From assembly GCA_035504415.1 (NCBI GenBank), contig DATJRY010000017.1:461263-525262 (forward strand): 64,000 nt of DNA. The letters run 5' to 3'. The position numbers were made by a program, and so were the translations under genes. The stretch's first letter is position 1. Each line of letters starts with the position of its first letter. This DNA is from Candidatus Sulfotelmatobacter sp. GTDB taxonomy: Bacteria > Vulcanimicrobiota > Vulcanimicrobiia > Vulcanimicrobiales > Vulcanimicrobiaceae. Under the pieces are notes generated by a model that had not been told where the DNA came from, did not search any database, and worked only from the letters and a program-made list of their open reading frames with translations. Shown here one piece after another: positions 4,627-30,534 of this stretch.

Positions 4627-6569
4627 GCGTCGACGAGCACGATCCGCATCGCGCGGCCGCTGCGGCGCGCGCGTCGCTCAAGCGCGCCGTCAAACGGTTG
4701 GGCTGGGTGCTGGTCGACGCGGCGACGGTCGAGGTGCGCGTCGAGCGCGCGGTCACGGTCGGCTCGCGCACGATCGTCGTTCGCGGCCGCGTGCCGATCG
4801 ACGTCCCGGCCGAGTTGACGCCGGAGGCCGCCGCGGCCGCCGTCGCACCCCTGGTCGACCCGACGGTCGCGCAGTTCGCGCACGCGATGCGGCGTGCGGT
4901 CGGTACGATCCTCACCGACCCCGACGACGTTACGCAGACGCGCACGTTCGATCGGCCCTCGTTCTTCTCGGCGCTCGAAGAGGCGCGGCGTTTTCTGCTC
5001 GACGCCTGGCGCGCGCTCGAGAACCGGCGCGTCGACGAGCGCGTCGAGGCCGAGCTCGGGCTGCGCTTCTACCTCGAGGGCCTGGGCGGCGCGGAACGCA
5101 CGCTCGAGTATTTCGTCGGCCCGACCAACTCGGGCAAGACGCACGCCGCGCTCGAGCTGCTGGCGGCCGCTGAGAGCGGGATGTATCTGGCTCCCTTGCG
5201 ACTGTTGGCACTCGAGGTCTACGAGCGCCTGATCGAGTGGGGCGGGCGCGCGTCCCTCGTCACCGGTGAGGAGCGCATCCTCGAAGCCGGCGCGCGCCAC
5301 GTCAGCTCGACGGTCGAGATGGTCGATCTGACGCGCGAGGTCGAGGTCGCGGTCGTCGACGAGGTCCAGCTGCTGGCGGACGAGCAGCGCGGCTGGGCTT
5401 GGACGCTCGCGATCGCCGCGGTCCGCGCCAAGCACGTCATCCTGTGCGGCTCGGAAGACGGGCTGCGCGCCGCGACGCGTTTGGCCGAGCGGCTCGGTAC
5501 GACGATCGCGGTGCGGCGCTTCGAACGCAAGAACCCGCTACGCGTCGTGCCGGCGGCGGGGGTGAGCGGCTTGCAGCCGGGCGACGCCGTGATCGCGTTC
5601 TCGCGGCGCGCCGTCATCGAGTATCAGCAGCAGGTCGTGCGCGCGGGCCTGGGGTCGGCGGTGATCTACGGCTCGCTCTCGCCCGGTGTGCGCCGTCGCG
5701 AAGCGGAGCGGTTTCGCACCGGCGCAGCGCAGGTCGTCGTCGCGACCGATGCGATCGGCCTGGGCCTGAACCTGCCGATTCGGCGCGTCGTCTTCGCGGC
5801 GGTGCGCAAGTTCGACGGCGTCGCGACGCGGAACCTCACCGCCGCCGAGATCCGCCAGATCGCCGGCCGCGCCGGCCGCTACGGGTTGCACGAGGAAGGG
5901 CTGGTGACCGCGCTCGACGCGCGCGACGTCGGCCTGATTCGCCGCGCGGTCGAAGGACGTGCGCCGGAGGCGCCGGACGGTCCGCTCTGGATCTCGCCGA
6001 CCGACGAGCACCTGCGGCGACTCGGAGCGATCATCGGCACGACGCGGGTCAGCCGCCTGCTGGACTTCTTTCGCACCCGCGTCCTCGCGAACGATGCGCA
6101 GCTGCGGATCGCCGACGTGAGCGCGCAGATCGACGTGGCGCTGGCGCTCGAGCTCGCTGACGGCTTCCTCGCGCTGCCGTTTGAGACGCGCGCGGTGTAC
6201 AGCCGGGCGCCGGTGTCGACGCGCGGCCCGAGCCTGGACGTGCTGGCCCGCTGGGGCGCGGCGCACGCGCGCGAGGGCGTCGTGGCCGGCGACGAGCTGG
6301 CGCGCTTGGGCGGACGCGACCGGCTCATGATCGACGAGGACCGCTCGCGCTTGGCGACGTTGTATCTCTGGTTAGCGCAGCGCTTCCCCGACGTGTACGT
6401 GAACGCCCACTTCATCGCGGAGCTGCGGGACGAAGCCGACGCGGGGATTCAAGCGACGCTGCGCGCACGGGGCTCGCACGCGCCGCACGCGACGGTTCCA
6501 CCGCCGCGCCGCACAATCGTGCGCCGGCCGCCACGCCCGTCGTATCCGAAGCCGCGTCGCCGGCACTGA
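4623..6569 (+). CDS. SUV3-like ATP-dependent RNA/DNA helicase (SF2)
   Basis: GPTNSGKT, YLAPLRLLA, VDEVQ, ATDAIGLGLNLP and QIAGRAGR motifs are characteristic of Suv3. Start inferred at TTG 4623, not 3771. Confidence 0.9.
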   Translation: MSVDEHDPHRAAAAARASLKRAVKRLGWVLVDAATVEVRVERAVTVGSRTIVVRGRVPIDVPAELTPEAAAAAVAPLVDPTVAQFAHAMRRAVGTILTDPDDVTQTRTFDRPSFFSALEEARRFLLDAWRALENRRVDERVEAELGLRFYLEGLGGAERTLEYFVGPTNSGKTHAALELLAAAESGMYLAPLRLLALEVYERLIEWGGRASLVTGEERILEAGARHVSSTVEMVDLTREVEVAVVDEVQLLADEQRGWAWTLAIAAVRAKHVILCGSEDGLRAATRLAERLGTTIAVRRFERKNPLRVVPAAGVSGLQPGDAVIAFSRRAVIEYQQQVVRAGLGSAVIYGSLSPGVRRREAERFRTGAAQVVVATDAIGLGLNLPIRRVVFAAVRKFDGVATRNLTAAEIRQIAGRAGRYGLHEEGLVTALDARDVGLIRRAVEGRAPEAPDGPLWISPTDEHLRRLGAIIGTTRVSRLLDFFRTRVLANDAQLRIADVSAQIDVALALELADGFLALPFETRAVYSRAPVSTRGPSLDVLARWGAAHAREGVVAGDELARLGGRDRLMIDEDRSRLATLYLWLAQRFPDVYVNAHFIAELRDEADAGIQATLRARGSHAPHATVPPPRRTIVRRPPRPSYPKPRRRH

Positions 6570-6610
6570 CGGGAAGGCCGTGCTCGCGCGCGCTGCGAAT
6601 GCGCGCCGGG

Positions 6611-7525
6611 ATGAAGCTACGCGCCGCGAGTTTCGCTCTGTGCTTGAGCGTTACCGCAATCGCCGCTGCGCCCGCGCGCACGCCGGCAGTCAGGCCGGCG
6701 ACGACCACCTCGCCGTCGCCGAAGCCAAAGCCGACGCCGCATCTGAGCAAGTGGCAACAGCACGAGCTGGAGATGTATCGCGCTTCCGCGCCGGCCGACG
6801 AGTATTTCGGCCGGATGAAGATGAGCTTTCTCGGCATGAACAACACGTTTCATGACGCCGCAATCACGGCGGGCGACCACACGACCAATCCCGCGATCAT
6901 CGCCAAGGTCGCGTTCGCCGAAGAAGCGCTCGACGCGTGGGGTCGCAAATATCCGCACGATCCACAGTTGGCGCGCACGTACTTCTTGGCAACGGTCGTC
7001 GACCGCAAGATCTGGGTAAAAGCGAACCAAGATCGCGCCTGGGTCTACCTCAACCGGCTCGTGCAGCTGTTCCCGGACTCGTATTTCGGCAAGCTGGTCA
7101 AGCGCGATCTCGTCGTCGGCTTCACCGAGCATTACTACGCCGATCCCGTGCCGTGCCCGGCGCCGACCGATACGCCGACGCCGACCCCCGAACCCACCGT
7201 GTCGCCCTCGCCGACACCGGAGCCGCGTCGCGGGCATCGTGAGCCGCCGCCGACGCCCACGCCGACCCCCACCGCGACGCCGACCCTCGAGCCCACGCCG
7301 AGCCCGACGCCGACGCCGACCGTCACCACGCCGGCACCGCATCTGACGATCGTCGTGCTGCCGCAAGCCTGCGTGCCGCCCGCCACGCCGAAGCCCACGC
7401 CCTCGCCGTCCGCCATGCCGACGCTGACGGCCGCACCGGCGGCACCCGTCGAGACGCCGAGCGGCACGCCGCTACCGGCTCCCCCGGCACCGACGCCGGG
7501 GCCGACGATTTCGCCACACCCCTAG
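6611..7525 (+). CDS. Secreted protein with helical N-domain and long Pro/Thr-rich tail
   Basis: Signal peptide, APADEYFGRMKMSFLG motif, then extensive PT/PS repeats. Start could be 6599. Confidence 0.75.
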   Translation: MKLRAASFALCLSVTAIAAAPARTPAVRPATTTSPSPKPKPTPHLSKWQQHELEMYRASAPADEYFGRMKMSFLGMNNTFHDAAITAGDHTTNPAIIAKVAFAEEALDAWGRKYPHDPQLARTYFLATVVDRKIWVKANQDRAWVYLNRLVQLFPDSYFGKLVKRDLVVGFTEHYYADPVPCPAPTDTPTPTPEPTVSPSPTPEPRRGHREPPPTPTPTPTATPTLEPTPSPTPTPTVTTPAPHLTIVVLPQACVPPATPKPTPSPSAMPTLTAAPAAPVETPSGTPLPAPPAPTPGPTISPHP

Positions 7526-7557
7526 TCGGGCCGCCTCAGCGGGAGTACCATCAGCGC

Positions 7558-7995
7558 ATGCGTTGGCTTTCGATCATCGGCGTGCTCGCCGCAGTCGCGC
7601 CGCGCGCCGTGGGCGCGCAGGCGCCCGCACCAATCGCCGTCACCTCCTGCACGGTACTGCAATATCAACCAGTGCGCGCGCATCCGTTCTGGAACCCGTG
7701 GTTCGTTCCGCCGAACGGCAGCCCGTACACCGACGGCCTGCAGATTACGTACGTCAATCGCAGCAGCCAACCGGCGACCCGCGTCGCGTTCTTGGTGAAC
7801 TACCGCGGCGCCGTCGAGCACGTCGTCGACGAGGGAACGTTCTCGCCCGGCGTGTCGATCACGCACACGTTCGGCCAGTTCAACGGCTATGCATATCTCG
7901 GCCCGCGGCCCAACGTGTGCCGGCCGGTCGCGGTTCGCTTCGCGGACGGCTCGATCTGGCGCGCGCCCGGCATCACCCGCTCCTCGACGCGCTGA
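7558..7995 (+). CDS. Secreted hypothetical protein (beta-rich, two Cys)
   Basis: Signal peptide MRWLSIIGVLAAVAPRAVGA, GGAG RBS, typical codon bias. Confidence 0.75.
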   Translation: MRWLSIIGVLAAVAPRAVGAQAPAPIAVTSCTVLQYQPVRAHPFWNPWFVPPNGSPYTDGLQITYVNRSSQPATRVAFLVNYRGAVEHVVDEGTFSPGVSITHTFGQFNGYAYLGPRPNVCRPVAVRFADGSIWRAPGITRSSTR

Positions 7996-8007
7996 GCGCC
8001 GCTCGTC

Positions 8008-8859
8008 TCAGGCGCTGCTCCCCCCGAGGAGTGCGATCTTCTCGGCGGTGTCGCTGCCGGTTTGCGGAGAGAACAGAACCAGCTTGAGCCCCGGCTGCTC
8101 GACGACGTCGAATTGCTTGAACCGCAGCAGCAGCTCGCCGGCGCGGTCGTGCTCGACCGGCTGCAGCACTTCGTGGATCTCGTCGACCGCATACTCCGCC
8201 CACCACTTCACGAACAGCGGGCTGATCGCGTTGAGCTGCTCGGCCAGCGCGGCGAATGACGGCGGCGCGCCGCGCCGCGCGTACGTCATGCGAAAGTCCG
8301 CGACGCACGCGCGCGCCAGAGGTTCGAAATTCGCAAGGTGTGCCGGCCCCCATTCCTGGCGCAGCAGCCGCCAGAGGAAGTTGCGCTCGAGGGCCTGCGC
8401 ATTCGGCCGCATCCCGAAGATCGCGGCGAATTCCCGGTTCCAGACCAAGATGTCGTACCGTCCGTTGCGCACGAACGCCGGACAGCGGAACTCGTCGACG
8501 ACGTCGCGCAGCGACGGTTGCTCGCCGACGTCGTCGGCGACGTCCGGATGTTGCGGCGGGCGGCCCGCCAGCTCGAAGAGATACTGCGTCTCCACCGTGT
8601 TGAGTTGAAGGACCGCGGCGATGTTGCTGAGGACGCGCACCGACGGGCGAATGTCGCGGCCCTGTTCGAGCCAGGTGTACCAGGTCGAGCCGACGTTGGC
8701 GAGCTCGGCCACTTCCTCGCGGCGCAGGCCGACGGTGCGACGCTTCCCGTTTGCCATGAACCCGTACGTACTCGGTGTGATTTGCTTGCGTTTGGTTCGC
8801 AAGAACGTCGCCAACTCTGATCGCGCGTTACCCGTGTTCGCGTCCGTTGAGCAACTCAT
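8008..8859 (-). CDS. XRE-family HTH regulator with MmyB-like ligand-binding domain
   Basis: ELATFLRTKR...RRTVGLRREEVAELANVGSTWYTWLEQGR and PAFVRNGRYDILVWN. Confidence 0.92.
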   Translation of the reverse strand: MSCSTDANTGNARSELATFLRTKRKQITPSTYGFMANGKRRTVGLRREEVAELANVGSTWYTWLEQGRDIRPSVRVLSNIAAVLQLNTVETQYLFELAGRPPQHPDVADDVGEQPSLRDVVDEFRCPAFVRNGRYDILVWNREFAAIFGMRPNAQALERNFLWRLLRQEWGPAHLANFEPLARACVADFRMTYARRGAPPSFAALAEQLNAISPLFVKWWAEYAVDEIHEVLQPVEHDRAGELLLRFKQFDVVEQPGLKLVLFSPQTGSDTAEKIALLGGSSA

Positions 8860-9032
8860 GTCCGCTCCCCACGCTGGACATCCGACAGCTACCGTATCAG
8901 GCTACCACTAGCATTGGGTAGGGACAAGTATAGAGCGCCGGTCACCGTGCAATCGGGACACGTGTAGTGTTGCTCGACGCTACGGGACCTCGCGCCCACG
9001 CTGGTCTTGGCCCAGTGACCGAGCGCGAATGT

Positions 9033-9090
9033 ACTAAGGCCTTAGTTGACAAGTCGCGGCTGAGGCGCTAGGGTGTACTAAAGCCTTAGT
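9033..9090 (+). promoter_or_regulatory. Sigma70 promoter flanked by two BlaI/CopY-type operator palindromes
   Basis: -35 TTGACA (9046-9051), 17-bp spacer, -10 TAGGGT (9069-9074). Palindromes ACTAAGGCCTTAGT (9033-9046, perfect) and ACTAAAGCCTTAGT (9077-9090). Confidence 0.8.
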
Positions 9091-9111
9091 AGTCTCGCCG
9101 TGAGGTGTCCG

Positions 9112-9495
9112 TTGGGCCGCGAGAAGCGCAAACCCCTGACCAAAGCCGAGCTGCGCGTGATGGAGGTCCTGTGGACCCTGCGCAGCGCCACCGTCGCCGA
9201 CGTCCAGGCGGCGATTTCCGAGCCGCTCGCCTACACGACGGTGCTCACCATGCTGCGCATCCTCGAGCAGAAGGGCTTCGTGCAGCGCCAGGCCGACGCG
9301 CGTGCCCACAGCTACTTCCCGGTCGTCGAGCGCGACGACGCCGTCGGTTCGGCGGTCGGCGATTTGGTGCAGTCGTTCTTCGCCAACAGCAAGGGCGAGC
9401 TGGCGGTGCGGCTGGTCGCGGAGTCGCGGCCTTCCGACGCCGAGCTGGCCAAGCTCAAAGAGCTGATCTCGCGCTATGAAGAGGAGAACCCATGA
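9112..9495 (+). CDS. BlaI/MecI/CopY family transcriptional repressor
   Basis: LTKAELRVMEVLW...LAYTTVLTMLRILEQKGFV. Start placed at TTG 9112 after a GAGG RBS (ORF caller gives 9100). Confidence 0.93.
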   Translation: MGREKRKPLTKAELRVMEVLWTLRSATVADVQAAISEPLAYTTVLTMLRILEQKGFVQRQADARAHSYFPVVERDDAVGSAVGDLVQSFFANSKGELAVRLVAESRPSDAELAKLKELISRYEEENP

Positions 9496-20349: not shown

Positions 20350-20688
20350 TCAGGTGCCCCCCGACTTGCAGATCAGACGCTGGATGCGCTCGAGCGTGAC
20401 CAGGCCGTCGGTCAAGACCTCGTCGATCGTGCTCAAGAACCCGCGCAGCCGTTCGATGTCGTCCGTCGCGACCTCGATCAGCATGGGCAGGTCCCCCGGC
20501 GCGTCGGGGTTCCAGTCGACCGAGAGCCGCCGATGGCTTCCGAAACCTTCGATCCCCCGAAAAACGGTCGCGCCACGGAAGCCGTGCTCGAGCAGCCGTT
20601 CGACCAACGCCTGCGTCGTCGAACGTTTGCCGGTGCGCGCGCTCTCCGAGACGTAGATCCGCATGAGCACGGCGTTGTGAGCGATCAT
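20350..20688 (-). CDS. DUF190 (PII-like, COG1993) protein
   Basis: MRIYVSE...GATVFRGIEGFGSH...DLPMLIEV...GLVTLE. Confidence 0.88.
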   Translation of the reverse strand: MIAHNAVLMRIYVSESARTGKRSTTQALVERLLEHGFRGATVFRGIEGFGSHRRLSVDWNPDAPGDLPMLIEVATDDIERLRGFLSTIDEVLTDGLVTLERIQRLICKSGGT

Positions 20689-20759: not shown

Positions 20760-21104
20760 ATGATCGCTGACCCGTCCTTCGTCCAGGGGCAGCTGCTGCG
20801 GATCTTCGTCGGCGAGGATGCCCACTACCATGGGCAGCCGCTCCACCTCGCGATCATCGAACTGCTCAAGCGCGAAGGGGTCGCCGGCGCCAGCGCCTTT
20901 CGGGGCATCGAAGGCTTCGGCTCGCATCACGAGATCCACCTCAACCGCGTCTTCGCGATCGGCGGGAAACTGCCGATCTTGATCGAGGTCGTCGACTCCG
21001 AGGAGCGCATCGCGGCGCTGCTGCCGCAGATCGAGCAGATGATCGACGAAGGCGCGGTGACGCTCGAGCGGGTCGAGTACCGGCGCTTTCTCAACGCGCG
21101 CTGA
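20760..21104 (+). CDS. DUF190 (PII-like, COG1993) protein, second paralog
   Basis: LLRIFVGE...GASAFRGIEGFGSH...KLPILIEVVDS...GAVTLERV. Confidence 0.9.
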   Translation: MIADPSFVQGQLLRIFVGEDAHYHGQPLHLAIIELLKREGVAGASAFRGIEGFGSHHEIHLNRVFAIGGKLPILIEVVDSEERIAALLPQIEQMIDEGAVTLERVEYRRFLNAR

Positions 21105-21110
21105 CACCGG

Positions 21111-21539
21111 TCAGCCCCGCAGCTCGTCGCTCACGACGAGGACCGGTGTTTGCGCCAGCCGGAGGACCGTGTCCGACACGCTGCCCAGGAGCTTGCGCTC
21201 GAGGCTGCCGCTGTGACGGCGCCCGACCACGATGAGGTCGGCGCCGATGCGGTGCGCCGCGTCGACGAGCGCGTGTGCTGCGTCGCCGTCCTCGATCAAT
21301 GCGAACGACGCGGTGACGCCGTGCCGCGCGGCACGCGCCACGGCTTCCTCGCCGTGCAGCCGATGTCCGCGCAGCTCCGCTTGACGCTCGCGTTCGTCCG
21401 GACCGCCGTGCGGGACCGGTTGGACGACGTCGACGATGGCGAGGCGGGCGTCGAACCGGCGCGCGACCTCCGCGGCGACGTCGACCGCGCGATCGGCGAT
21501 CGCGGTCTCGTCCCAACCGACCAGCACGTGCGAGAACAT
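21111..21539 (-). CDS. Universal stress protein, last gene of the riboswitch-led operon
   Basis: FSHVLVGWD...ADLIVVGRR...LLGSVSDTVL; starts 7 bp after the hyfB-like stop. Confidence 0.9.
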   Translation of the reverse strand: MFSHVLVGWDETAIADRAVDVAAEVARRFDARLAIVDVVQPVPHGGPDERERQAELRGHRLHGEEAVARAARHGVTASFALIEDGDAAHALVDAAHRIGADLIVVGRRHSGSLERKLLGSVSDTVLRLAQTPVLVVSDELRG

Positions 21540-21546
21540 AGACTGC

Positions 21547-23478
21547 CTACCAGTGGCGAACGGCCGGGAAAAGGAGCAGCATGACGATCGTGAACACCAG
21601 AATGTACGAGAGATAGAGCGCGATCACGCCCGACTGCGTCTCGCGCACGACGTCGGCGGCGCGCAAGAAGGCCGCGCCGATCCGGTTCCAGACGGCGACG
21701 CCGACCCAGGCGCGCGCGCGGACCGCGAGGTCGAGGATGACGCGGGTCGGGTTCGCGTAGCCGACGCCGGTGTATTGCGTCCACGGCCGGTACGCTTCGC
21801 CGGACGTCCACACCGGCACACGCGCGGAGCGCGGGCGGCGGATCAGCGCCACCAGCACGGCGAACGCCGCGGCGAAGCCGCCCACCACCAAGCCGAGTCC
21901 GAGCGGCCACGCCGACGAGAAGCCGGCGAAGGCCGGCTCGATGACCGGCGCGTCGGCCAGGATGCGCGCCGTCGCCGGGACGCCGGCCAAGCCGTCGATC
22001 GTGGGCCCCAGGGCGCTGATGAGCTGCGGCGCGAGGATGCCGACGCCGAGCGCACCGACCGCGCCCAGGACCAGCGCGGCGCCGCGAAAGGGATCGCGGC
22101 CGGCGCTCGCGCGTTCGGCCGCGGGCGTGCGCGGGGCCCCCAAGAAACCGATCCCGACGAGCTTCACGAACGCGACGATCGCGACGCCGGCGGCGATGCC
22201 GATCGTGGCGCCGCTCAACGCGAAGGTGATCGTCGCCGTGACGTTGCCGGTGCGGAACGCCTGCAGCAACGCTTCGAGCGTCATCCATTCGCCGGCGAAG
22301 CCGCCGCTCGGCGGCAGCGCGACGAGCGAGCCGGCTGCCGCCAGCACGACGACCGTCACCAGCGGGAGCGAACGCCACAGGCCGCCGAGCTCTTGGAACG
22401 AGGTCGTGCCGGCGTCGGCGCGCACTGCGGCGCAGGCCAGAAAGAGCGTGCACTTCGCGAGCGCATGCGCGGTCGCGTGCGCGAGCGCCGCGGCCACCCC
22501 GATGCCGCACAGGAACGGCAAGTCCAACGCGCGCGCCGCGATCGCGACGCCGAGCCCGACCAGCACGATCCCGGCGTTCTCGACGCTCGAGTAGGCCGCC
22601 AGCGTGCGCGCGTCGCGTTGCACCGCGGCCCAGGCGATGCCGAAGAACGCCGCCAGCGCGCCGCACGCCATCACCAGCAACCCCCACCACAGCGGCGTCG
22701 CTCCGCTCATCCCCAGGCCGACGCGGGCGATGCCGTAGAAGCCGACGTTGAGCGCGCCGCCCGCCATCATCGCGGCGACCAGCGAGGGTGCGGCGGTGTA
22801 GCCGCGCGCCATCCAGATCGGAAACGGCAAGATGCCGACCTTGGCGCCGAACGCGCACAGGAACAGCGCGAACGCGACACCGCGCACCAGCGGCGTCGCG
22901 CTCGCGCCGGCCGCCAAGAGCGTCGGCAATCCGAACGTGCCGTGGCCGACGACGACGAACGCGGCCAGCAGGCCCGCCGCGGCGCCGTGGGTGAGCAGCA
23001 GCGTGAGGTAGGCGGCGGACGGCCCGCGCGGGTCGGTGCCGGCGTAGGCGATGGCCTGATAGAAGGCCAGCGCCAGCAGCTCCCAGCCGAACACGAAGAG
23101 CAGCGCGTCGTCGGCCGTGCAGACGAGCAGCGAGGCGAACAGGACGCCGGCGGTGGCGCACGCGGCGGCGCGGCCGTCGCCGCGTTCGTCGGCGGTGCGC
23201 GCGCCCAGACCGTAGATGCCGACGACGACGCCGACCGCGCCGACGATGCCGAGGAACGCGGCGGCGAGCGGGTCGACGCGCAGCGCGAGATGCAAGGCGG
23301 GAGCCGCACGCCAACTGCGCGCGCCGTGCGCGAGCACGTCGCCCGCGGCGAGGAGTGCCGCGGCTCCGCCCAGCGCCGTGGCGAGAAAACCGGCCGCGCG
23401 GCCGACCGGCCCCTGCACCAGCGCCGCCAGCGCGAAGCCCGCGACGAGCAGCGCGAAGGCGATCAGCAGCGCGCTCAT
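21547..23478 (-). CDS. hyfB: HyfB-like (NuoL/M/N, Mrp-type) proton-translocating membrane subunit
   Basis: LRVDPLAAAF, FGWELL, GAKVGILPFPIW, AYSSVEN, AHALAKCTLF, LPPSGGFAGEW. Start 23478 by ATGA overlap. Confidence 0.88.
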   Translation of the reverse strand: MSALLIAFALLVAGFALAALVQGPVGRAAGFLATALGGAAALLAAGDVLAHGARSWRAAPALHLALRVDPLAAAFLGIVGAVGVVVGIYGLGARTADERGDGRAAACATAGVLFASLLVCTADDALLFVFGWELLALAFYQAIAYAGTDPRGPSAAYLTLLLTHGAAAGLLAAFVVVGHGTFGLPTLLAAGASATPLVRGVAFALFLCAFGAKVGILPFPIWMARGYTAAPSLVAAMMAGGALNVGFYGIARVGLGMSGATPLWWGLLVMACGALAAFFGIAWAAVQRDARTLAAYSSVENAGIVLVGLGVAIAARALDLPFLCGIGVAAALAHATAHALAKCTLFLACAAVRADAGTTSFQELGGLWRSLPLVTVVVLAAAGSLVALPPSGGFAGEWMTLEALLQAFRTGNVTATITFALSGATIGIAAGVAIVAFVKLVGIGFLGAPRTPAAERASAGRDPFRGAALVLGAVGALGVGILAPQLISALGPTIDGLAGVPATARILADAPVIEPAFAGFSSAWPLGLGLVVGGFAAAFAVLVALIRRPRSARVPVWTSGEAYRPWTQYTGVGYANPTRVILDLAVRARAWVGVAVWNRIGAAFLRAADVVRETQSGVIALYLSYILVFTIVMLLLFPAVRHW

Positions 23479-24224
23479 TCGGGTGCCTCGCGGGCGTGCG
23501 CGGCGACGCGGCCCAGTGCGACCCACAAGCCGTGCAGGATGCTCAGCGGCGCCGGCGGCGCGCCCGGGACCTTGACGTCGACCGGCACGACGCGGTCGAC
23601 CGGGCCGAGCACGTCCTGCGGAGCGTAGATGCTGCCCGAGCTGGCCGCACTGCCCACCGCGACCACCAGCTTGGGATCGGGCATCGCCTCGTACGTCCGG
23701 CGCAACGGCTCGGCCATGGCGCGGGTGACCACTCCGGTGACGACCAGCAGGTCGGCATGGCGCGGCGTCGCGGTGAGAAAGATCCCTAGCCGGTTGAGAT
23801 CGTAGAACGGGTTGAAGAGCGCTTGCACCTCCTGATCGCACGACGCGTCGCTGCCGCCGTCGACGTGCCGCACGAAGACCGAGCGCCCGAGCGACGAAGC
23901 GCGGCGCGCCAGGCGCGCCTGCGTGGTGGCGAGATCGGTCGGGATGAGCGAGAGTTCGTACTCGTTGCGCATCGCGTACGCATCGGGCGCGACACGCGCG
24001 CACCAGCCGCACTGGAAACAGCGTTGGCGCAGCACGACCGGCGGCGCGTGCGTGAGATCGATCGCGTTCGACAGACAAGCGCGTGCGCCGCGTTCGTAGG
24101 CCTCCGGCGGAGCGCCGGGCAGAACGGCGGCCGTTCCCCGCCAGTCGGCCGGCATCTCTTCGCGACCGCCGGGATAGCGGGTTGTCAGAATGCCGCGTGA
24201 GAGGCCGCGCAGAAACCAATTCAT
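23475..24224 (-). CDS. Fused ferredoxin-like (HyfH/HycF) plus NuoB-like small subunit (HyfI/HycG) with degenerate Fe-S ligands
   Basis: TTRYP, CFQCGWC, RHVDGGSDASC.QE, FYDLNRLGI..TATPRHADLLVVTG, DPKLVVAVG, DVKVPGAPP. Start 24224 by ATGA overlap. Confidence 0.9.
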   Translation of the reverse strand: MNWFLRGLSRGILTTRYPGGREEMPADWRGTAAVLPGAPPEAYERGARACLSNAIDLTHAPPVVLRQRCFQCGWCARVAPDAYAMRNEYELSLIPTDLATTQARLARRASSLGRSVFVRHVDGGSDASCDQEVQALFNPFYDLNRLGIFLTATPRHADLLVVTGVVTRAMAEPLRRTYEAMPDPKLVVAVGSAASSGSIYAPQDVLGPVDRVVPVDVKVPGAPPAPLSILHGLWVALGRVAAHAREAPE

Positions 24225-25615
24225 CGGTCGGTCTCCGCCACGATCAGCCCGAACGAGTGCTCGATGAACGAGAAGTCGGTGAAGATGTTGCCCGGTAATG
24301 CGGGGACGAACAACGGCCAGTTCTGGAACGACGCGCTGCGGATCGCGACCCGTCGCAGCTGTCCGTCGAAGCGGACCGCGTAGAGCAGCTCGCCCTGCGG
24401 TGATTCCACCCGCGCCATCCCCTCGGCGGCGCCGAACGACGGTACGGCGGCGCACGACGGACCGGGTGGCGCGGCGTCGAGCGCGTTGCGTACCAGCAAG
24501 AACGAGCGATGGATCTCTTCGCGTCGCACCTGCGCGCGGGCGAGCGCGTCGCCGCCGGCGGCCAACGCCTCGTCGGCCTCCTGCGACGTGAAGTTCCAGC
24601 CGTCGCGCGTTCGCGCGTCGCACGGCACGCCGCTGCCGCGTGCGACCGGGCCAACCGCGCCGAACGCGCCGATCGTCGCCGCGTCGAGGTGTCCGGTGCC
24701 GACCAGCCGGTCGATCAGCGAGGGCGTCGCGAAAAGCGCTTCGAGGGCGGCCAGCGTCTCGTGCTCGACCAGCTCGAGGTCGGTGCGGCAGGCCGCGTGC
24801 AGTGCCTCGAAGGCGTCGAATCGCGTCCCGCCGACGCACACGACGCCGCGACCGAAGCGGTTCTCGACCGCGCGCGCCAGCAGCCGGTGAACACGTTCCT
24901 TCGCGGCGTAGGTGTGCGCGGCACCGACGCTCAGCGAGCCGTCGTCGGCCAGTTTGGCCAGCGCGTCCAGGTGTTGGTGGATGCGTTCCAGCTCGCTCAG
25001 GATCGCGCGAGCGGCGCGCGCGCGCGGTGGGACCTCGACGTTCAGCGCTGCTTCGGCGGCGCGCGCAAAAGCCGTCGCGTGGCTGACCGCGGTGGCACCG
25101 GAAACGTGCTCCGCGACGAACGGCGCCTGGTCGAGCGGAACGCCCGCGAAACGCGCTTCCAGCCCACGGTACTTGAATCCGAACGAGGGCGTGACGTGCG
25201 CGAAGTCCTCGCCGCGCGTCTCGATGATCCAGCGGGCCGATTCGCCGATCCCCGAGCGCACGGGGCCGTACAAGACCGTCGACGCGTCAGGCGAGTCGAC
25301 GTGACGATAGCCTTCGGCGGCGGAAGGAATCAGCGGTGAGGGTTCGCCCGGCGCGGCATCGAGCTGCACGCCCCAGCGCTCGACCAGCTCGCGCTCGTGC
25401 CAGCCTGCCGCCGGCAGGCCGAGCGACTCGAGCGCGTTCTGCAGATAGCCGTCGAACGAGCGCAGCGCGCCGTTCTCGTCGACGACATAACGCACGAACG
25501 TGCCGTGCTCGTCGCGATCGGCGTAGCACCATACGAAGCGCGCGCCGCCGTCCACTCGTGCGCGCGCCGCCGCCCGCGCTTGCCGCGCCGTGGCATCGGC
25601 GCGTTGCACGATCAC
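24221..25615 (-). CDS. HyfG/HycE-like (NuoC+NuoD) large subunit lacking NiFe-binding motifs (Ehr type)
   Basis: WHEREL, YGPVRSGIGES, FKYRGLE, ELERIHQHL, GPVARGSG, ARAQVRREE, VESPQGE, RSASFQNW. RxCGxC and DPCxxC are absent. Start GTG 25615 by GTGA overlap. Confidence 0.9.
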   Translation of the reverse strand: MIVQRADATARQARAAARARVDGGARFVWCYADRDEHGTFVRYVVDENGALRSFDGYLQNALESLGLPAAGWHERELVERWGVQLDAAPGEPSPLIPSAAEGYRHVDSPDASTVLYGPVRSGIGESARWIIETRGEDFAHVTPSFGFKYRGLEARFAGVPLDQAPFVAEHVSGATAVSHATAFARAAEAALNVEVPPRARAARAILSELERIHQHLDALAKLADDGSLSVGAAHTYAAKERVHRLLARAVENRFGRGVVCVGGTRFDAFEALHAACRTDLELVEHETLAALEALFATPSLIDRLVGTGHLDAATIGAFGAVGPVARGSGVPCDARTRDGWNFTSQEADEALAAGGDALARAQVRREEIHRSFLLVRNALDAAPPGPSCAAVPSFGAAEGMARVESPQGELLYAVRFDGQLRRVAIRSASFQNWPLFVPALPGNIFTDFSFIEHSFGLIVAETDR

Positions 25616-27048
25616 GGCGAGCCCTCGAACAGCGCTTGCGCGCGGGCGATCAGCGCGACCAGCGGCTCCGGTACGACCAGGCCCAGGCCGATCACGACGA
25701 TCAGCCCGATGCACATCCCGGCGATCGGCACGAGCGCGCGCTCGCCGCGCCGCGTGTGCTCCGGCGGGTCGCCGGTCGTGGTCGCGGTGACCCAGCGCAG
25801 CAGTCCGGCGAACGCGATCGTCAGCAGGACGGCGACGATCGCGGCGAACCAGGGCGTGCGCCCGAAGCCGCCGGCGAGGATCATCAGCTCGCTGCGGAAG
25901 ACGCCGAACGGCGGCAAGCCGGCCAGCGAGAGACCCGCCAACGCGAACAGCACGCCCGAAACCGGCAGGCTGCGGATGCCGCCCCGGATGCCGGCGATCT
26001 CGCGCGTCTCGTAGCGCTCGGCGAGGCGTCCCGCGGAGAGGAAGGCCAGCGACTTGGAGGCGGCGTGGTTGATGGTGTGCAGCAGCGCGCCGGCGATCGC
26101 CAGCGGCGCGCCGAAGGCCAGCCCGACCGCGACGACGCCCATGTGCTCGATGCTCGAGTACGCCAGCATGCGTTTGATGTCGCGCTGCTGCAGCAAGAAA
26201 AAGGCCGCGAGCGCGAGCGAGATGATGCCGACGATGCCGAACAGCCGGTGGGTCATGGTGTCGCCGACGCTGGCATTGGTGATGCCGGCGAAGCGGAGGA
26301 TGACGTAGAGCGCGTCGGAGAGCAAGACGCCGGAGAGCATTGCGCTGGTCGGCGTGGGGCCCGCGCCGTGCGCGTCGGGCAGCCAGGTGTGCATCGGCGC
26401 GAGGCCCATCTTGGTGCCGAAGCCGATCAACGCCAACAAGAACGCCAGCCGCACGGCGTTCGGGTCGAGACCCTTGGCGGCGTGCACGTACGCGCTCCAC
26501 TCCGGCGCGTAGTGCGCGCCGAGCACGCTGGTGCCGGCGTCGTAGAGCACGACCACGCCGACCAGGCCGATCGCCAGACCGCAGGAGGCGATCAGGATGT
26601 ACTTCCAGGCCGCCTCCAACGCGCCGTCGGTGCCCTGCAGGCGAACGAGCAGCGCCGCCAGGATCGTGGTGACCTCCATCGCGACCCACAAGCCGGCCAT
26701 GTTCGAGAGCAGCGGCACGACGGCTTCGGCGCAGGCGAAGGCGTTGGTGAGCGCGAGGAATTGCCGCCGGTAGCGCTCGCCGGCCGCGTCGTCGCGGCTC
26801 TCGGCCGCGACGTACCAGGCCGCGTAGAGGCCGACCCCGCCGTACACCACCGCGACCGGGATCAGGAAGAGCCCGGAGAGCGCGTCGAGCGCCGGACGTC
26901 CGGCGCCGAACGCGTCGAGCAGCATCAGCGCGGCGGCGACCAGGCCGCCGGCGGCCGTCAGCGGCCGCCCGGCGCGCGAGGGAAGCAGCGCCGTCGCGAC
27001 GGCCAGCGCCCCGGGCACGATGACGACGAGCCACGAGAGCGTGCTCAT
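25612..27048 (-). CDS. hyfF: HyfF-like proton-translocating membrane subunit
   Basis: WVAMEVTT, LEAAWKY, GFGTKMGLAPMHTWLPDAH, KRMLAYSSIEH, NHAASKSLAF, GLPPFGVFRSE. Confidence 0.92.
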   Translation of the reverse strand: MSTLSWLVVIVPGALAVATALLPSRAGRPLTAAGGLVAAALMLLDAFGAGRPALDALSGLFLIPVAVVYGGVGLYAAWYVAAESRDDAAGERYRRQFLALTNAFACAEAVVPLLSNMAGLWVAMEVTTILAALLVRLQGTDGALEAAWKYILIASCGLAIGLVGVVVLYDAGTSVLGAHYAPEWSAYVHAAKGLDPNAVRLAFLLALIGFGTKMGLAPMHTWLPDAHGAGPTPTSAMLSGVLLSDALYVILRFAGITNASVGDTMTHRLFGIVGIISLALAAFFLLQQRDIKRMLAYSSIEHMGVVAVGLAFGAPLAIAGALLHTINHAASKSLAFLSAGRLAERYETREIAGIRGGIRSLPVSGVLFALAGLSLAGLPPFGVFRSELMILAGGFGRTPWFAAIVAVLLTIAFAGLLRWVTATTTGDPPEHTRRGERALVPIAGMCIGLIVVIGLGLVVPEPLVALIARAQALFEGSP

Positions 27049-27719
27049 CCGCGCAGCTCCGAGAGGCTGCGGATCGAAGCCGAGTTGCGGCGCGCGATCA
27101 TGATGCGGGCGAGCACCGCGAAGACGACGACCGCCACCAGGACGTCGATCAGCAGCAGGACGCCGACGACGAACGGCAGCCCCGGCGCGAGCGTCACCGT
27201 GCCGAAGAACAGCCCGTTTTCGAGGGTCAGGAACGCGATCAGCTGCGCGAGAGCATTCGGCCGCAGTATGGCGAGCAGGAAGCCGATGAAGACGATCGCC
27301 ATCGTCGCGGCCAGGTCCGCGCGCGGCAGCAGCGCGCCGAACGGCAGCGGCAGGCGCGCGGCGGTCAGCAGCGCGAGGGCGGTCAACGCGGCGGCCAGCA
27401 GGATCGAGAGCGTGACGTTGACGTGAATCGGCAGCTCGATGCGCACCGCGATCGAACGCGCCAAGCCGCGCATGTATGCCGGCAGGACGACGACCTTGAA
27501 GACCAGCGTGAGGACGGCCAGCACGATCAGGTCCCAGCCGTGCTCTTCGATGCCGACGATGAGCGCGACCGCCGCGACGAACAGCGATTGCACCGCGTAG
27601 AGCGAGATCAGCTCGCCGAGGATGACCGAGCGGAACATGGCCAGTTGGGTCAGGATGAGCGCGACGACGATCGTGCCCGCGAGCGCGTCGGCCGCGGTGA
27701 GCGGGTGGGGCGTCATCAT
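27045..27719 (-). CDS. hyfE: HyfE-like membrane subunit
   Basis: YAVQS, FKVVVLP, QLIAFLTLENGLFF, LLIDV; overlaps both neighbours. Confidence 0.88.
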   Translation of the reverse strand: MMTPHPLTAADALAGTIVVALILTQLAMFRSVILGELISLYAVQSLFVAAVALIVGIEEHGWDLIVLAVLTLVFKVVVLPAYMRGLARSIAVRIELPIHVNVTLSILLAAALTALALLTAARLPLPFGALLPRADLAATMAIVFIGFLLAILRPNALAQLIAFLTLENGLFFGTVTLAPGLPFVVGVLLLIDVLVAVVVFAVLARIMIARRNSASIRSLSELRG

Positions 27720-28672
27720 CCCACCCGCGCCGCCCAGGTGACGACGGCCAGCACCGCCAGCAGCAGGCCGGTCGCGATGAACTCGGTGATCTTGTAGAGG
27801 CGCAGCTTAGCGAACGACGTGTCGATGACGACGACGACCGCCCCGACGATCAGCATCTTGCCGAAGACGGTGACGAGCGCCAGCGCGACGGCGCCCACGC
27901 TGCCGGTCGCGGCCAGGCCGGGCGGCAAGAAGAGCACGTTGCAGAAGATCGTGTAGAGCACGAACTGCTTCATCGAGGCGCCCCACTTGAACAGGCCCAT
28001 CTCGGGGCCGGCGTGCTCGAACAGCCGCGCGTCGTCGATCATGCCGAACTCGATCGTCGCGCTCGAGCTTTCGATCGGGATGCGGCCCGTGTCGACCAGG
28101 AGCATCAAGAAGAAGGCCGCCATCGCGAACAGGTGCGCCGGGCGCACGACCGCCGCGACCGAGTGGCTGAGCAGCGCGTTCATCGCGTACGGGAGGTCGG
28201 TTCCGGTGATGAACGCGACCGAGAAGAAGACGAAGATCAGCGTCGGCTCGACCAGGATGCCGACCATCGTCGCGCGGCTGGCGCCGATCGAGGTGTACTG
28301 CGAGCCGCCGTCGAGAGCGGCGAGCGCGGTGACGAAGCCCGCCAGCGCGAGGACGAACGCGCCGCCGAGGATGTCGCCATAGGTGGCGCCGGGCAACGGA
28401 TACGTCGTCAGGACCGGGATCAGCGTCGCGACGGTCGCGTAGCAGCCGCATGCCACGTAGGGCGCGATGCGAAAGACGGGCGAGGCGACGTCGGGCGTGA
28501 CGCGCTGCTTGCGCAGCAGCTTCACGATGTCGCGATAGACCTGCCAGATCGACGGCCCGCGTTTGCCCTGCACGATCGCGGAGGCGCGGGCGATGAGTCC
28601 GGTGAGCAGCGGAGAGACGAACAGCGTCGCTCCGACCTGACACGCCTGGACGGCCAAGGGCGTCAAGGTCAC
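27716..28672 (-). CDS. hyfC: HyfC/HycD-like (NuoH family) membrane subunit, first gene after the riboswitch
   Basis: GKRGPSIWQVYRDIVKLLRK, GASR...LVEP, DTGRIPIE, AKLRL. Confidence 0.9.
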   Translation of the reverse strand: MTLTPLAVQACQVGATLFVSPLLTGLIARASAIVQGKRGPSIWQVYRDIVKLLRKQRVTPDVASPVFRIAPYVACGCYATVATLIPVLTTYPLPGATYGDILGGAFVLALAGFVTALAALDGGSQYTSIGASRATMVGILVEPTLIFVFFSVAFITGTDLPYAMNALLSHSVAAVVRPAHLFAMAAFFLMLLVDTGRIPIESSSATIEFGMIDDARLFEHAGPEMGLFKWGASMKQFVLYTIFCNVLFLPPGLAATGSVGAVALALVTVFGKMLIVGAVVVVIDTSFAKLRLYKITEFIATGLLLAVLAVVTWAARVG

Positions 28673-28742
28673 CGTTGCCTACCCCGGGAATCACCATTGC
28701 GCAGCACTGAACTTCCTCCGACGCGTCGAGTGGAGACGGGTC

Positions 28743-28804
28743 GTAGGAGTCATTGGCCACGCGGGCGGTTTGCGGCGACTGCCGACGGGCGGACCCCACC
28801 GCCC
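28743..28804 (-). ncRNA. Fluoride riboswitch (crcB RNA motif)
   Basis: Minus strand reads GGGCGG-UGGGGU-CCGCCC...AAACC-GCC-CGCGU-GGC-CAAUGACUCCUAC. P1 is 6 bp, P2 is present, and the pseudoknot GGGGU/ACUCC can form. Matches the GGCGAUGGNGUUCGCC...AAAC...UAAUGACNCCUAC consensus with a compensatory A-U to G-C change. Confidence 0.87.
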
Positions 28805-28854
28805 GGGGACGTTGCGACTCGGGTTCGGCCAGAGCCCGGAGGCGGCCTTCCGCG

Positions 28855-30534
28855 TTACGCGAGCGCCGGGGCAGCGGGTTCGACGCGGTCGCGGCCGCCG
28901 TGCTTGGCGGCGTACAGCGCCGCGTCGGCGCGTTCGAGCAGCGCTTCACCGGGCTCGTCACCCAGCGCGCAGGCGGCGCCGATGCTGACCGTCAGCACGC
29001 CGTCCACCCCGTCGGCGTGCGGGATCGCCTTCGCCCGAACCGCACGGCGGACGCGTTCGCCGAGTGCCACGGCGCCCTCGATGTCGGTCCCCGGCAAGAG
29101 CGCGACGAACTCTTCGCCGCCGAAGCGCGCGGCGCAATCGACCGCACGCAGCGCTCCGCCGAACGCGGTTGCCACCGCGCTCAGCGCTTGGTCGCCGGCG
29201 AGGTGTCCGTAGCGGTCGTTGTAGCTCTTGAACTTGTCGACGTCGAGGACCAGCACGGAATACGGAGCGTGCGTGCGCTGCGCGTGCGCGCGTTCCTCGG
29301 CCATCGCACGCTCCAGGCCGCGGCGGTTCGTCAGCCGGGTCAAGGGATCGAAGAACGCGTCGTGCTCGAAGGTGCGCAGGCGCTCCGCCAGCGCGATCGA
29401 GAGGAGCAGCGCCTCCCAGGCGAAGCCGAGCGTCGGCGCGACGTGCAGCAGCGCCGTGTACTGCACCAGCAGGTTGATGCCCGCGCCCCCGATCACGTTG
29501 CCCAGCATCACGCCGACGACCGCCAACGCGTAGAGCACCGCTTCACGGTCGCCGCGCGACGCGGCGACGATCCCGCACAGCGCGAGCGGCGCGAGAACGA
29601 GCGCGGTGGTGACGATCTCCGCCCAATCCCAGACGCCTGCGCCGATCAGCAGCTCCGGGGCGACGACGAGCAGCACGTTCGTGAGCACGAAGAGCCCGAG
29701 CAGCGCGAGGATCAGCGCGTCGGTGCGCGGGAACGTCGAGCGCGTGCGCAGGAACGCGCGGCCGAAGACGACGGCGGAGCCGATCGCGAGCGCGTAGGTC
29801 GTGTTGTCGGCCAGATCGTAGTCGATCCCGACACCGGGCCACAGCCAGCGCCACGCGTCGCCGCTGAGCACGAGCACGTGGAGCGCCGCCGCGACGACGG
29901 CGGCGGCGTAGTAGGCGTACGTCGACCGTCGCAGGCGCAGCGCCAGCAGGACGTTGAGCACGCCGAAGGCGGCGACGAACCCGGCGGAGAGGAGCTGCAG
30001 TCCGCGCGTCCCCGCGCCTTCGACCAGCCAGCCGAACCACGCGCGCTCGCTCATCAGGCGGAAGACGGAGGCGTGCGCGAAGGACGAGCGGACGCGCAGA
30101 TAGATCGGCCGGCCGTCGAGCGCGTCGCGCGGCAGCGGGATCAAATTTTGGGCGTGCGGGAACGGCTTGTCGGCCGTCGGGACGTCGCCGCCGGTGTGCA
30201 CGGTCTCCACGCCGCCGTCGGCGCGCGGGACGAACAGCTCGGCGTCGAGCGTGTGCCAGGAGACGAGCAGATCGTAGGCGCCGGGCTCGCGCGGTCGGAT
30301 GCGCAGCCGAAACCAGGTGATCGCGGGATGCGCTCGCGTCGCCGTGTGGCGGTCGACGAGCGTGGGAGCCGAACGCCACGGCGCGTCGGGCGCGCGCACC
30401 TCGGCGAGCGTGAGGCGGCCGCCGTCGTCCGCGATCGCATCGGCGCGCGTCCAGAGATCGACGTCCGTATCGGCGGCGGGTCGCAGCGGAGCGACCACGG
30501 CTAGCACTAGCGCCGCCAGAACCGCCTGGTACAC
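28855..30534 (-). CDS. Diguanylate cyclase with 7TM-DISM extracellular and 7TM sensor domains
   Basis: Signal peptide, 'WFRLRI' DISM-ED, 7 TM segments, DPLTRLTNRR, DVDKFKSYNDRYGHLAGD, RAVD I-site, GGEEF. Confidence 0.92.
   Translation of the reverse strand: MYQAVLAALVLAVVAPLRPAADTDVDLWTRADAIADDGGRLTLAEVRAPDAPWRSAPTLVDRHTATRAHPAITWFRLRIRPREPGAYDLLVSWHTLDAELFVPRADGGVETVHTGGDVPTADKPFPHAQNLIPLPRDALDGRPIYLRVRSSFAHASVFRLMSERAWFGWLVEGAGTRGLQLLSAGFVAAFGVLNVLLALRLRRSTYAYYAAAVVAAALHVLVLSGDAWRWLWPGVGIDYDLADNTTYALAIGSAVVFGRAFLRTRSTFPRTDALILALLGLFVLTNVLLVVAPELLIGAGVWDWAEIVTTALVLAPLALCGIVAASRGDREAVLYALAVVGVMLGNVIGGAGINLLVQYTALLHVAPTLGFAWEALLLSIALAERLRTFEHDAFFDPLTRLTNRRGLERAMAEERAHAQRTHAPYSVLVLDVDKFKSYNDRYGHLAGDQALSAVATAFGGALRAVDCAARFGGEEFVALLPGTDIEGAVALGERVRRAVRAKAIPHADGVDGVLTVSIGAACALGDEPGEALLERADAALYAAKHGGRDRVEPAAPALA

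Follow-up and report, generated by a model that had tools for sequence, protein, structure and literature searches.

A fused ferredoxin and small-subunit protein in an Ehr operon

We analysed a 64,000-nt window of Candidatus Sulfotelmatobacter sp. DNA (contig DATJRY010000017.1; G+C content 68%), and all positions given below are coordinates in this window. Its minus strand carries an operon of six overlapping genes in the order NuoH-like, HyfE-like, NuoN-like, NuoCD-like, fusion and NuoL-like (H-E-N-D-B-L), closed by a universal stress protein gene and preceded by a fluoride riboswitch aptamer. The operon unites a gene set like that of group 4 hydrogenases with a large subunit devoid of the NiFe cysteine pairs, and it therefore encodes an Ehr (energy-converting-hydrogenase-related) membrane complex. 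Ehr complexes are related to group 4 hydrogenases, lack NiFe ligands and have no known function (PMC6349859, PMC10284858, PMC7894505). The fusion protein (P0001) joins a ferredoxin domain to a hydrogenase-type small-subunit domain, and the medial [4Fe-4S] site of its ferredoxin domain is the only cluster site with a full set of cysteine ligands. The features of its gene, as obtained from translation, alignment and structure prediction, are the following.

23475–24224, minus strand: fused small-subunit gene (249 aa), with a HycF/NuoI-type ferredoxin domain and a NuoB/HycG/MbhJ-type domain in its translation
24170–24224, minus strand: N-terminal amphipathic helix (residues 3–9 in the AlphaFold2 model) and TTRYP loop (residues 14–18), aligned to the HycF N-terminus
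24078–24107, minus strand: degenerate motif 1, PPEAYERGAR (residues 40–49), the former distal (N6a-type) site, now a Cys-less helix modelled at pLDDT 96–98
24075–24077, minus strand: C50 (codon TGT), aligned to the fourth Cys of motif 1 in HycF
24000–24020, minus strand: C69-x-x-C72-G73-x-C75, the first three Cys of motif 2 (codons at 24018–24020, 24009–24011 and 24000–24002, respectively)
23985–23990, minus strand: A79-P80, with Ala (codon GCG, 23988–23990) replacing the fourth Cys of motif 2, the leftover ligand of the lost distal cluster
23505–23897, minus strand: NuoB/HycG-type domain with a dismantled proximal (N2) site (D126, C129, A193 and A222), from residue-by-residue alignment to MbhJ and HycG

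The C-terminal half of the protein matched PF01058 (Oxidored_q6) over residues 128–233 (E = 7.5e-24; 84.3 bits against a cut-off of 27), and this NuoB-type half matched MbhJ (1.6e-36) and HycG (1.4e-31) in the PDB. For the N-terminal domain, we aligned 40 homologous domains and searched the resulting profile against the PDB, which returned residues 4–107 of Escherichia coli HycF (7z0s_F; E = 5.5e-13), dozens of NuoI/TYKY/NdhI chains (many at 1e-10 to 1e-8) and MbhN. The AlphaFold2 model of this domain reached a pLDDT of 93–98 over residues 31–90 and had HycF, NuoI and MbsN as its top Foldseek neighbours, while the model of the full-length protein lay nearest to HycG and MbhJ (~1e-15). The N-terminal helix, the loop and the (beta-alpha-beta)2 core of subunit-I ferredoxins are all found in P0001, together with the sequence and fold similarity, and its N-terminal ~100 residues are thus a subunit-I ferredoxin of the HycF/NuoI type. 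The amphipathic helix and loop have been described for HycF and are common to all solved members of the superfamily (PMC9474812). We assembled a family of 81 sequences, consisting of the window protein and its counterparts from 80 fetched loci in distinct genomes of Eremiobacterota/Vulcanimicrobiota, many Actinomycetota (including Streptomyces, Nocardia and Streptantibioticus) and one Chloroflexota. Residues W3, G7, T14 and P18 of the helix and loop region are kept in at least 95% of them. Since the same genome has a gene for a complex I NuoB of the ordinary kind, with CC...C...CPP ligands and adjoining nuoA and nuoC, the Ehr subunit is a specialised paralogue and not the sole copy in the cell.

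One medial cluster site is retained and conserved

Subunit-I ferredoxins carry two C-x2-C-x2-C-x3-C-P motifs, the remains of which lie in residues 41–55 (EAYERGARACLSNAI) and 69–80 (CFQCGWCARVAP) of P0001. In the profile register against HycF, C50 corresponds to the fourth Cys of motif 1, C69, C72 and C75 to the first three Cys of motif 2, and A79 to the fourth Cys of motif 2, and only the medial set remains. Single-sequence alignments to FrhG and to clostridial-type 2x[4Fe-4S] ferredoxins gave the identical register. The residue after C50 is Leu in the window protein and Pro in 67 of the 81 homologues. The first-pass annotation, which covered 23975–24224 (residues 1–83), had read motif 1 as keeping only its last Cys and motif 2 its first three, and translation together with inspection of the codons on the raw sequence bore this out.

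Published structures tell which cluster these residues would bind. In MbsN, the medial cluster is ligated by C71, C96, C99 and C102 (PMC8165549), and in NdhI, cluster N6a is held by C65/68/71/115 and cluster N6b by C75/105/108/111 (PMC6358722). The MbsN medial set and the NdhI N6b set both consist of the fourth Cys of motif 1 and the first three Cys of motif 2. As electrons pass from N6a to N6b to N2 (PMC6616624), the ligand lists and the electron order place the retained site of P0001 as the medial, N6b-type one, and the deleted site as that of the distal entry cluster. C50, C69, C72 and C75 are hence the predicted ligand set of one [4Fe-4S] cubane. The MbsN and NdhI assignments also support the earlier proposal that the four surviving Cys make up one complete cluster. 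Its companion claim, a clean removal of the other site, agrees with the absence of any conserved Cys at positions 40, 43, 46 and 79 and with a loop that is shortened in most homologues.

We also considered membership in the single-cluster ferredoxins of Fer4_13 (PF13370) and rejected it, as the score of P0001 (22.6 bits) stays below the cut-off of 24.5 and the ligand order is mirrored, the lone Cys preceding C-x2-C-x2-C. The resemblance to Fer4_13 is convergence within the fold, not membership.

Every one of the 81 family sequences has C50, C69, C72, G73 and C75, at a mean identity of ~46%; this goes well past what chance would give, and 29 of the proteins contain no Cys other than these four. 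A wider set of 120 database homologues gave the same picture, with C50, C69 and C75 present in 116/116 sequences that span the domain and C72 in 115/116. Positions 40, 43 and 46 are devoid of Cys throughout the 81 sequences, position 46 being a gap in 70. Position 79 is A in 31, R in 27 and C in 5 of the 81, and P80 is kept in 71. Within the domain, the segment of the former distal site varies most, in both sequence and length. The complete conservation of the four Cys across three phyla indicates that the site is under selection. Selection on a single Fe–S centre was what the first-pass annotation had argued, naming Cys conservation across homologues as one way to check it, and C50, C69, C72 and C75 passed that check in 81/81 sequences. 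On its refuting condition, four Cys that are not co-located in a model, the confidently predicted HycF/NuoI-like fold speaks indirectly for co-location.

Four homologues that appeared to lack the Cys (P0138, P0185, P0221 and P0259) were discarded as exceptions; they have an Arg/Pro/Gly-rich, out-of-frame-looking stretch over the motif and are probably products of frameshifts or assembly errors. Three short forms of 164–165 aa (P0062, P0063 and P0069) start at a Met equivalent to M85, perhaps because the start was wrongly called or the gene is broken.

The proximal cluster and the NiFe site are lost

The four small-subunit Cys that hold the proximal cluster of group 4 [NiFe]-hydrogenases are reduced to one in P0001. 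In the family, the consensus at these four positions is D/E/D/S (D126 in 81/81, E129 in 62/81, D193 in 73/81 and S222 in 67/81), from which the window protein departs with D/C/A/A (23559–23849). Judging from this consensus, a cation or a metal fluoride might bind to the three carboxylates of the former N2 pocket, the complex being under fluoride control.

Two residues after the third canonical N2 ligand position, which has itself lost its Cys, at residue 195 (23638–23640), a Cys is found in 40/81 family sequences and 72/120 database homologues; the window protein has Ser there.

The partner of the fused subunit is encoded directly upstream.

24221–25615, minus strand: large subunit of the NuoC/NuoD type without NiFe ligands (EhrL-like), from Pfam PF00346 and alignment to MbhL and HycE

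This protein reads VSGATAVSH where MbhL and HycE have C-G-x-C, the L1 Cys being replaced by S and T, and it ends in SFGLIVAETDR as opposed to the C-x-x-C-x-D-R of hydrogenases. Both the L1 motif (R-x-C-G-x-C-x3-H) and the L2 motif (C-x-x-C near the C-terminus) of group 4 [NiFe]-hydrogenases are therefore missing. None of the 80 homologous loci checked has a NiFe Cys pair in its large subunit, and the same script did recognise relatives with L1 and L2 (L088, L103, L111 and L126). The first-pass annotation had spoken of a complex with no catalytic metal site, and the large subunit in the window, lacking NiFe ligands, fits that description.

A working hydrogenase and a complex-I-like quinone reductase were both rejected as identities of the complex, for it has no NiFe ligands and no N2 site. 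With the distal, proximal and NiFe sites all gone, the ligand pattern predicts that the medial cluster, if bound, is without a redox neighbour on either side.

Order of cofactor loss among relatives

We scored 161 small subunits, fused or related, including 50%-identity representatives and 80 metagenome loci retrieved by means of an alignment of relatives whose N2 site is intact. All intermediate cofactor states are represented, in the following combinations.

Distal and medial sites, N2 present, NiFe ligands present: 5 sequences
Medial site only, N2 present, NiFe ligands present: 4 sequences
Distal and medial sites, N2 present, NiFe ligands absent: 15 sequences
Medial site only, N2 present, NiFe ligands absent: 29 sequences
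Medial site only, N2 absent, NiFe ligands absent: 81 sequences

In the other 27 of the 161, no ferredoxin domain lay on the called open reading frame, the large subunit was unscored or, in one case, neither ferredoxin site was present. The distal site was never kept without the medial one among the 161 sequences.

A midpoint-rooted FastTree phylogeny (140 columns) of the NuoB-type domain intersperses the two-cluster forms with one-cluster ones, which implies several losses of the distal site. The N2-less family falls within the fluoride-associated clade of 91 sequences (support 0.978), in which Ehr forms with three and with two clusters also occur. The one-cluster pattern is not limited to metal-free complexes, as it also occurs in relatives with a proximal cluster and NiFe ligands, and these intermediate states show the one-cluster ferredoxin domain to be older and wider than the metal-free state. 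What, by its ligand residues, appears special to the N2-less family is that the last partner, N2, was lost as well, yet the medial site stayed.

The four metagenome loci L088, L103, L111 and L126 have both NiFe Cys pairs in the large subunit and a fused small subunit with the medial and proximal clusters only, and are apparently hydrogenases with a two-cluster wire, as far as their motifs tell. The gene order of L126 is also H-E-N-D-B.

Operon conservation and the fluoride riboswitch

The remaining elements of the operon, from the downstream to the upstream end, are listed here.

21111–21539, minus strand: universal stress protein gene at the end of the operon (Pfam PF00582, 7e-28)
21547–23478, minus strand: NuoL/HyfB-type antiporter-like subunit (Pfam PF00361, 8.3e-39)
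25612–27048, minus strand: NuoN/HyfF-type antiporter-like subunit (Pfam PF00361, 4.2e-52)
27045–27719, minus strand: HyfE-like membrane subunit, without a Pfam match and assigned by position and length, its place in the operon being kept in 80 loci
27716–28672, minus strand: NuoH/HycD-type membrane anchor subunit (Pfam PF00146, 2.3e-30)
28737–28812, minus strand: aptamer of the fluoride riboswitch (crcB motif) in the 5′ leader of the operon (Rfam RF01734, full-length match)

The H-E-N-D-B-L order is common to all 80 homologous loci, none of which (0 of 80) has an unrelated gene, such as one for a redox partner, between the six genes. The universal stress protein gene comes after the L gene in 25 of the 80. 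Both antiporter-like subunits keep the charged residues of their ion pathways: E125, K213, K292, K332 and E387 of the NuoN/HyfF-type subunit in at least 95% of 73 sequences, and E133, K213, K342 and E397 of the NuoL/HyfB-type subunit in at least 95% of 69 sequences.

The aptamer in the window reached 35.5 bits (E = 6.8e-07), the gathering score being 34. Riboswitch calls in the family loci were made with cmscan, and a custom regular expression for the aptamer, which hit 0/80 loci, was set aside. RF01734 was found in 10 of the 22 family loci tested, and in six of them (L005, L008, L026, L053, L065 and L072) it directly precedes the first gene, on the strand of the operon. It also stands ahead of three sister-clade operons that still have N2 (L091, L130 and L095), and the sister-clade operons with the aptamer include ones carrying N2 and distal clusters. 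No RF01734 was detected in the 11 loci examined outside the fluoride-associated clade.

Several loci have two or three RF01734 aptamers, some of them facing divergent genes.

Role of the retained site

We favour, at a probability of about 0.5, a reading in which the lone medial site binds a cluster that now serves structure or assembly, the Ehr complex having ceased to be a redox pump. Such a cluster, lacking a redox neighbour, would be unable to feed the chamber between the large and small subunits and would instead be kept as a cofactor that stabilises fold and assembly. Small ferredoxin folds are built around their clusters, and here the cluster would shape a small domain whose N-terminal helix and loop would fasten the peripheral module to the NuoH-type anchor. 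Through the cluster, redox or oxidant conditions might also influence assembly or stability. The complex would be switched on through the fluoride riboswitch and, with its ion-pathway residues kept, would presumably serve transport. Because of these residues and the riboswitch control, the operon most likely encodes, on sequence grounds, a non-redox, Mrp-like cation/proton translocator acting in the fluoride response.

The distances in homologous complexes bear directly on whether the cluster could still be an electron-transfer centre, with an unlinked soluble donor reducing it and an acceptor bound near the fused subunit taking up the electrons to drive ion translocation. Relay clusters in those complexes lie <12 Å apart edge to edge (PMC8165549), and efficient transfer needs <14 Å (PMC9474812), so that without N2 the substrate chamber would lie well outside the tunnelling range of the medial cluster. 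The loss of both canonical relay neighbours, distal N6a and proximal N2, likewise argues against a relay role, as does the lack of a redox-partner gene between the six genes in 80/80 loci, and the N2 ligands have given way to a conserved D/E/D/S and not to other metal-thiolate ligands. The relay reading thus fails on geometry and gene content, and we regard continued electron transfer as quite improbable, even though the general assumption is that a redox reaction drives ion movement in Ehr complexes (PMC6349859), relatives that have NiFe ligands apparently operate with one ferredoxin-domain cluster plus a proximal one, and the membrane-arm residues are conserved. A decaying relic, that is, a gene or motif on its way to loss with no present role, would suit a lineage that has lost three of four ancestral metal sites, but it is hardly credible at all given four Cys kept in every family sequence at ~46% overall identity, reading frames that are intact and overlap as in coupled operons, and a conserved riboswitch regulation. 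The four Cys might also bind no cubane and instead hold a Zn ion, or form disulfides that staple the domain. HycF does carry an unexpected Cys4 mononuclear metal site elsewhere in the protein (PMC9474812); the C-x18-C-x2-C-x2-C spacing, the invariant Gly, the C-P pair (67/81) and the ferredoxin fold are nevertheless those of the HycF/NuoI cubane site, and the cytoplasmic location disfavours disulfides, making this explanation very unlikely.

More weight is due to a redox or oxidant sensor, although we still consider it doubtful. In this case the medial cluster would be more exposed with the distal one gone, and its oxidation state, or its destruction by O2, NO or reactive oxygen species, would switch the complex on or off or mark it for turnover. 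The invariance of the four Cys exceeds what mere packing would lead one to expect, the operon, a stress regulon governed by a fluoride riboswitch, ends, here and in 25/80 loci, in a universal stress protein gene, and in the relatives with only medial and proximal clusters the medial one has to be accessible from solution. Residues typical of known Fe–S sensors were, however, not identified in the protein, and conservation alone cannot separate sensing from a structural role. A more specific version, which we rate as speculative and somewhat less probable still, makes the orphan cluster the sole redox element of the complex, a redox or oxidant switch gating fluoride-induced ion transport; if true, fluoride defence would be tied to the redox state of the cell, and the complex would be a new kind of complex-I-like machine.

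Several points weigh against the structural or assembly role that we prefer. Such a role and a sensing one are hard to tell apart by sequence, and absolute conservation might reflect more than fold stability, since some ferredoxin-like domains persist without clusters. Occupancy of the site by a cubane is itself a prediction from sequence and fold only. One 50%-identity representative (P0132, 190 aa) has the helix and T-x-R-Y-P loop joined straight to the NuoB-type domain with no ferredoxin core; it may represent a form of the subunit without any cluster, or else an artefact of gene calling. The monophyly of the N2-less group has a weak support of 0.146 in the tree, and the function of Ehr complexes is called unknown in the literature (PMC6349859, PMC10284858).

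Comparison with known systems

The closest described systems are the Geobacter sulfurreducens GSU0739-45 cluster (EhrA-D, EhrL and EhrS) and Mycobacterium tuberculosis Rv0082-87, which share with the operon in the window a group-4-type gene set with antiporter-like subunits, a large subunit without NiFe Cys and an unknown function (PMC6349859, PMC10284858, PMC7894505). In contrast to both, the operon described here has a HycF::HycG-type fusion in which the proximal and distal clusters are lost and the medial one alone is left. Rv0082 is presumably a protein of 159 aa with no ferredoxin domain. We found no description of the medial-only cofactor state in the Ehr literature searched, the scope of which did not include the survey of Marreiros 2013, and a prior description is possible.

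The two halves of the fusion have their best sequence and structure matches in HycF and HycG of the E. coli formate hydrogenlyase (FHL; 7Z0S), with which they share the N-terminal helix, the loop, the ferredoxin core and the small-subunit fold. In FHL, HycF and HycG are separate and their clusters F1, F2 and G1 feed a NiFe site, whereas here a single polypeptide has one predicted cluster and the complex is without a NiFe site. P0001 also lacks the metal-binding Cys4 extension found at the C-terminus of HycF. The same peripheral-arm module occurs in MbhN/MbhJ and MbsN/MbsJ of Pyrococcus furiosus and in NuoI/NuoB, and the ligand set kept in P0001 is that of the MbsN medial cluster and of NdhI N6b. 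Unlike P0001, the membrane-bound complexes MBH and MBS, complex I and NDH-1 always carry a full three-cluster chain ending at the substrate chamber.

As a functional analogy only, the retained site recalls cluster N7 in NuoG of bacterial complex I, an Fe–S cluster stranded by a lost electron path and kept for enzyme stability. N7 was reportedly found by Pohl in 2007 to be kept because it stabilises the enzyme. That result is cited in PMC9474812. N7 differs in lying in another subunit and fold, beside a working relay, while no relay is left here. Mrp (CPA3) antiporters resemble the membrane part, having antiporter-like subunits with the same Glu/Lys pathway residues and no redox input (PMC7419157), but they are without homologues of NuoH, NuoB, NuoC, NuoD and NuoI, and in the complex in the window the whole peripheral module and the anchor are kept.

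In complex I, NDH-1, MBH, MBS and FHL alike, ion pumping is believed to be coupled to chemistry that takes place where a distal-medial-proximal chain of clusters ends. The lineage studied here keeps the architecture and the ion-pathway residues, yet the chain ends and the catalytic site have been removed and the middle site is kept without exception. It thereby offers a natural experiment that separates the parts of the peripheral arm required by structure from those required by electron transfer. Together with its relatives it makes up a stepwise series of cofactor losses that starts at three clusters plus NiFe and ends at one cluster, and with this series the working of the coupling module without redox input can be probed. 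Cultured carriers exist in Streptomyces (Streptomyces sp., L053), Nocardia (Nocardia sp., L065) and Streptantibioticus (S. parmotrematis, L072), and these questions are thus testable.

The findings also touch on annotation, as 'formate hydrogen lyase' has been listed as a common enzyme associated with fluoride riboswitches (PMC11139923). If this listing covers the present lineage, that label is a misnomer, and the genes filed under it or as 'Ni,Fe-hydrogenase III small subunit' include complexes unable to make hydrogen or to conduct electrons.

Neighbouring genes

Three further observations concern the surroundings of these operons. Just past the universal stress protein gene of the window, two DUF190 (COG1993, PII-like) genes lie back to back, at 20350–20688 on the minus strand and 20760–21104 on the plus strand. 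Directly upstream of the riboswitch and on the same strand, a gene at 28855–30534 (minus strand) encodes a 7TMR-DISM sensor fused to a GGDEF diguanylate cyclase. Among the metagenome loci, L107 has group II intron domains (RF02001 twice and RF00029) at 6253–9464 on its plus strand, just downstream of the Ehr small-subunit gene.

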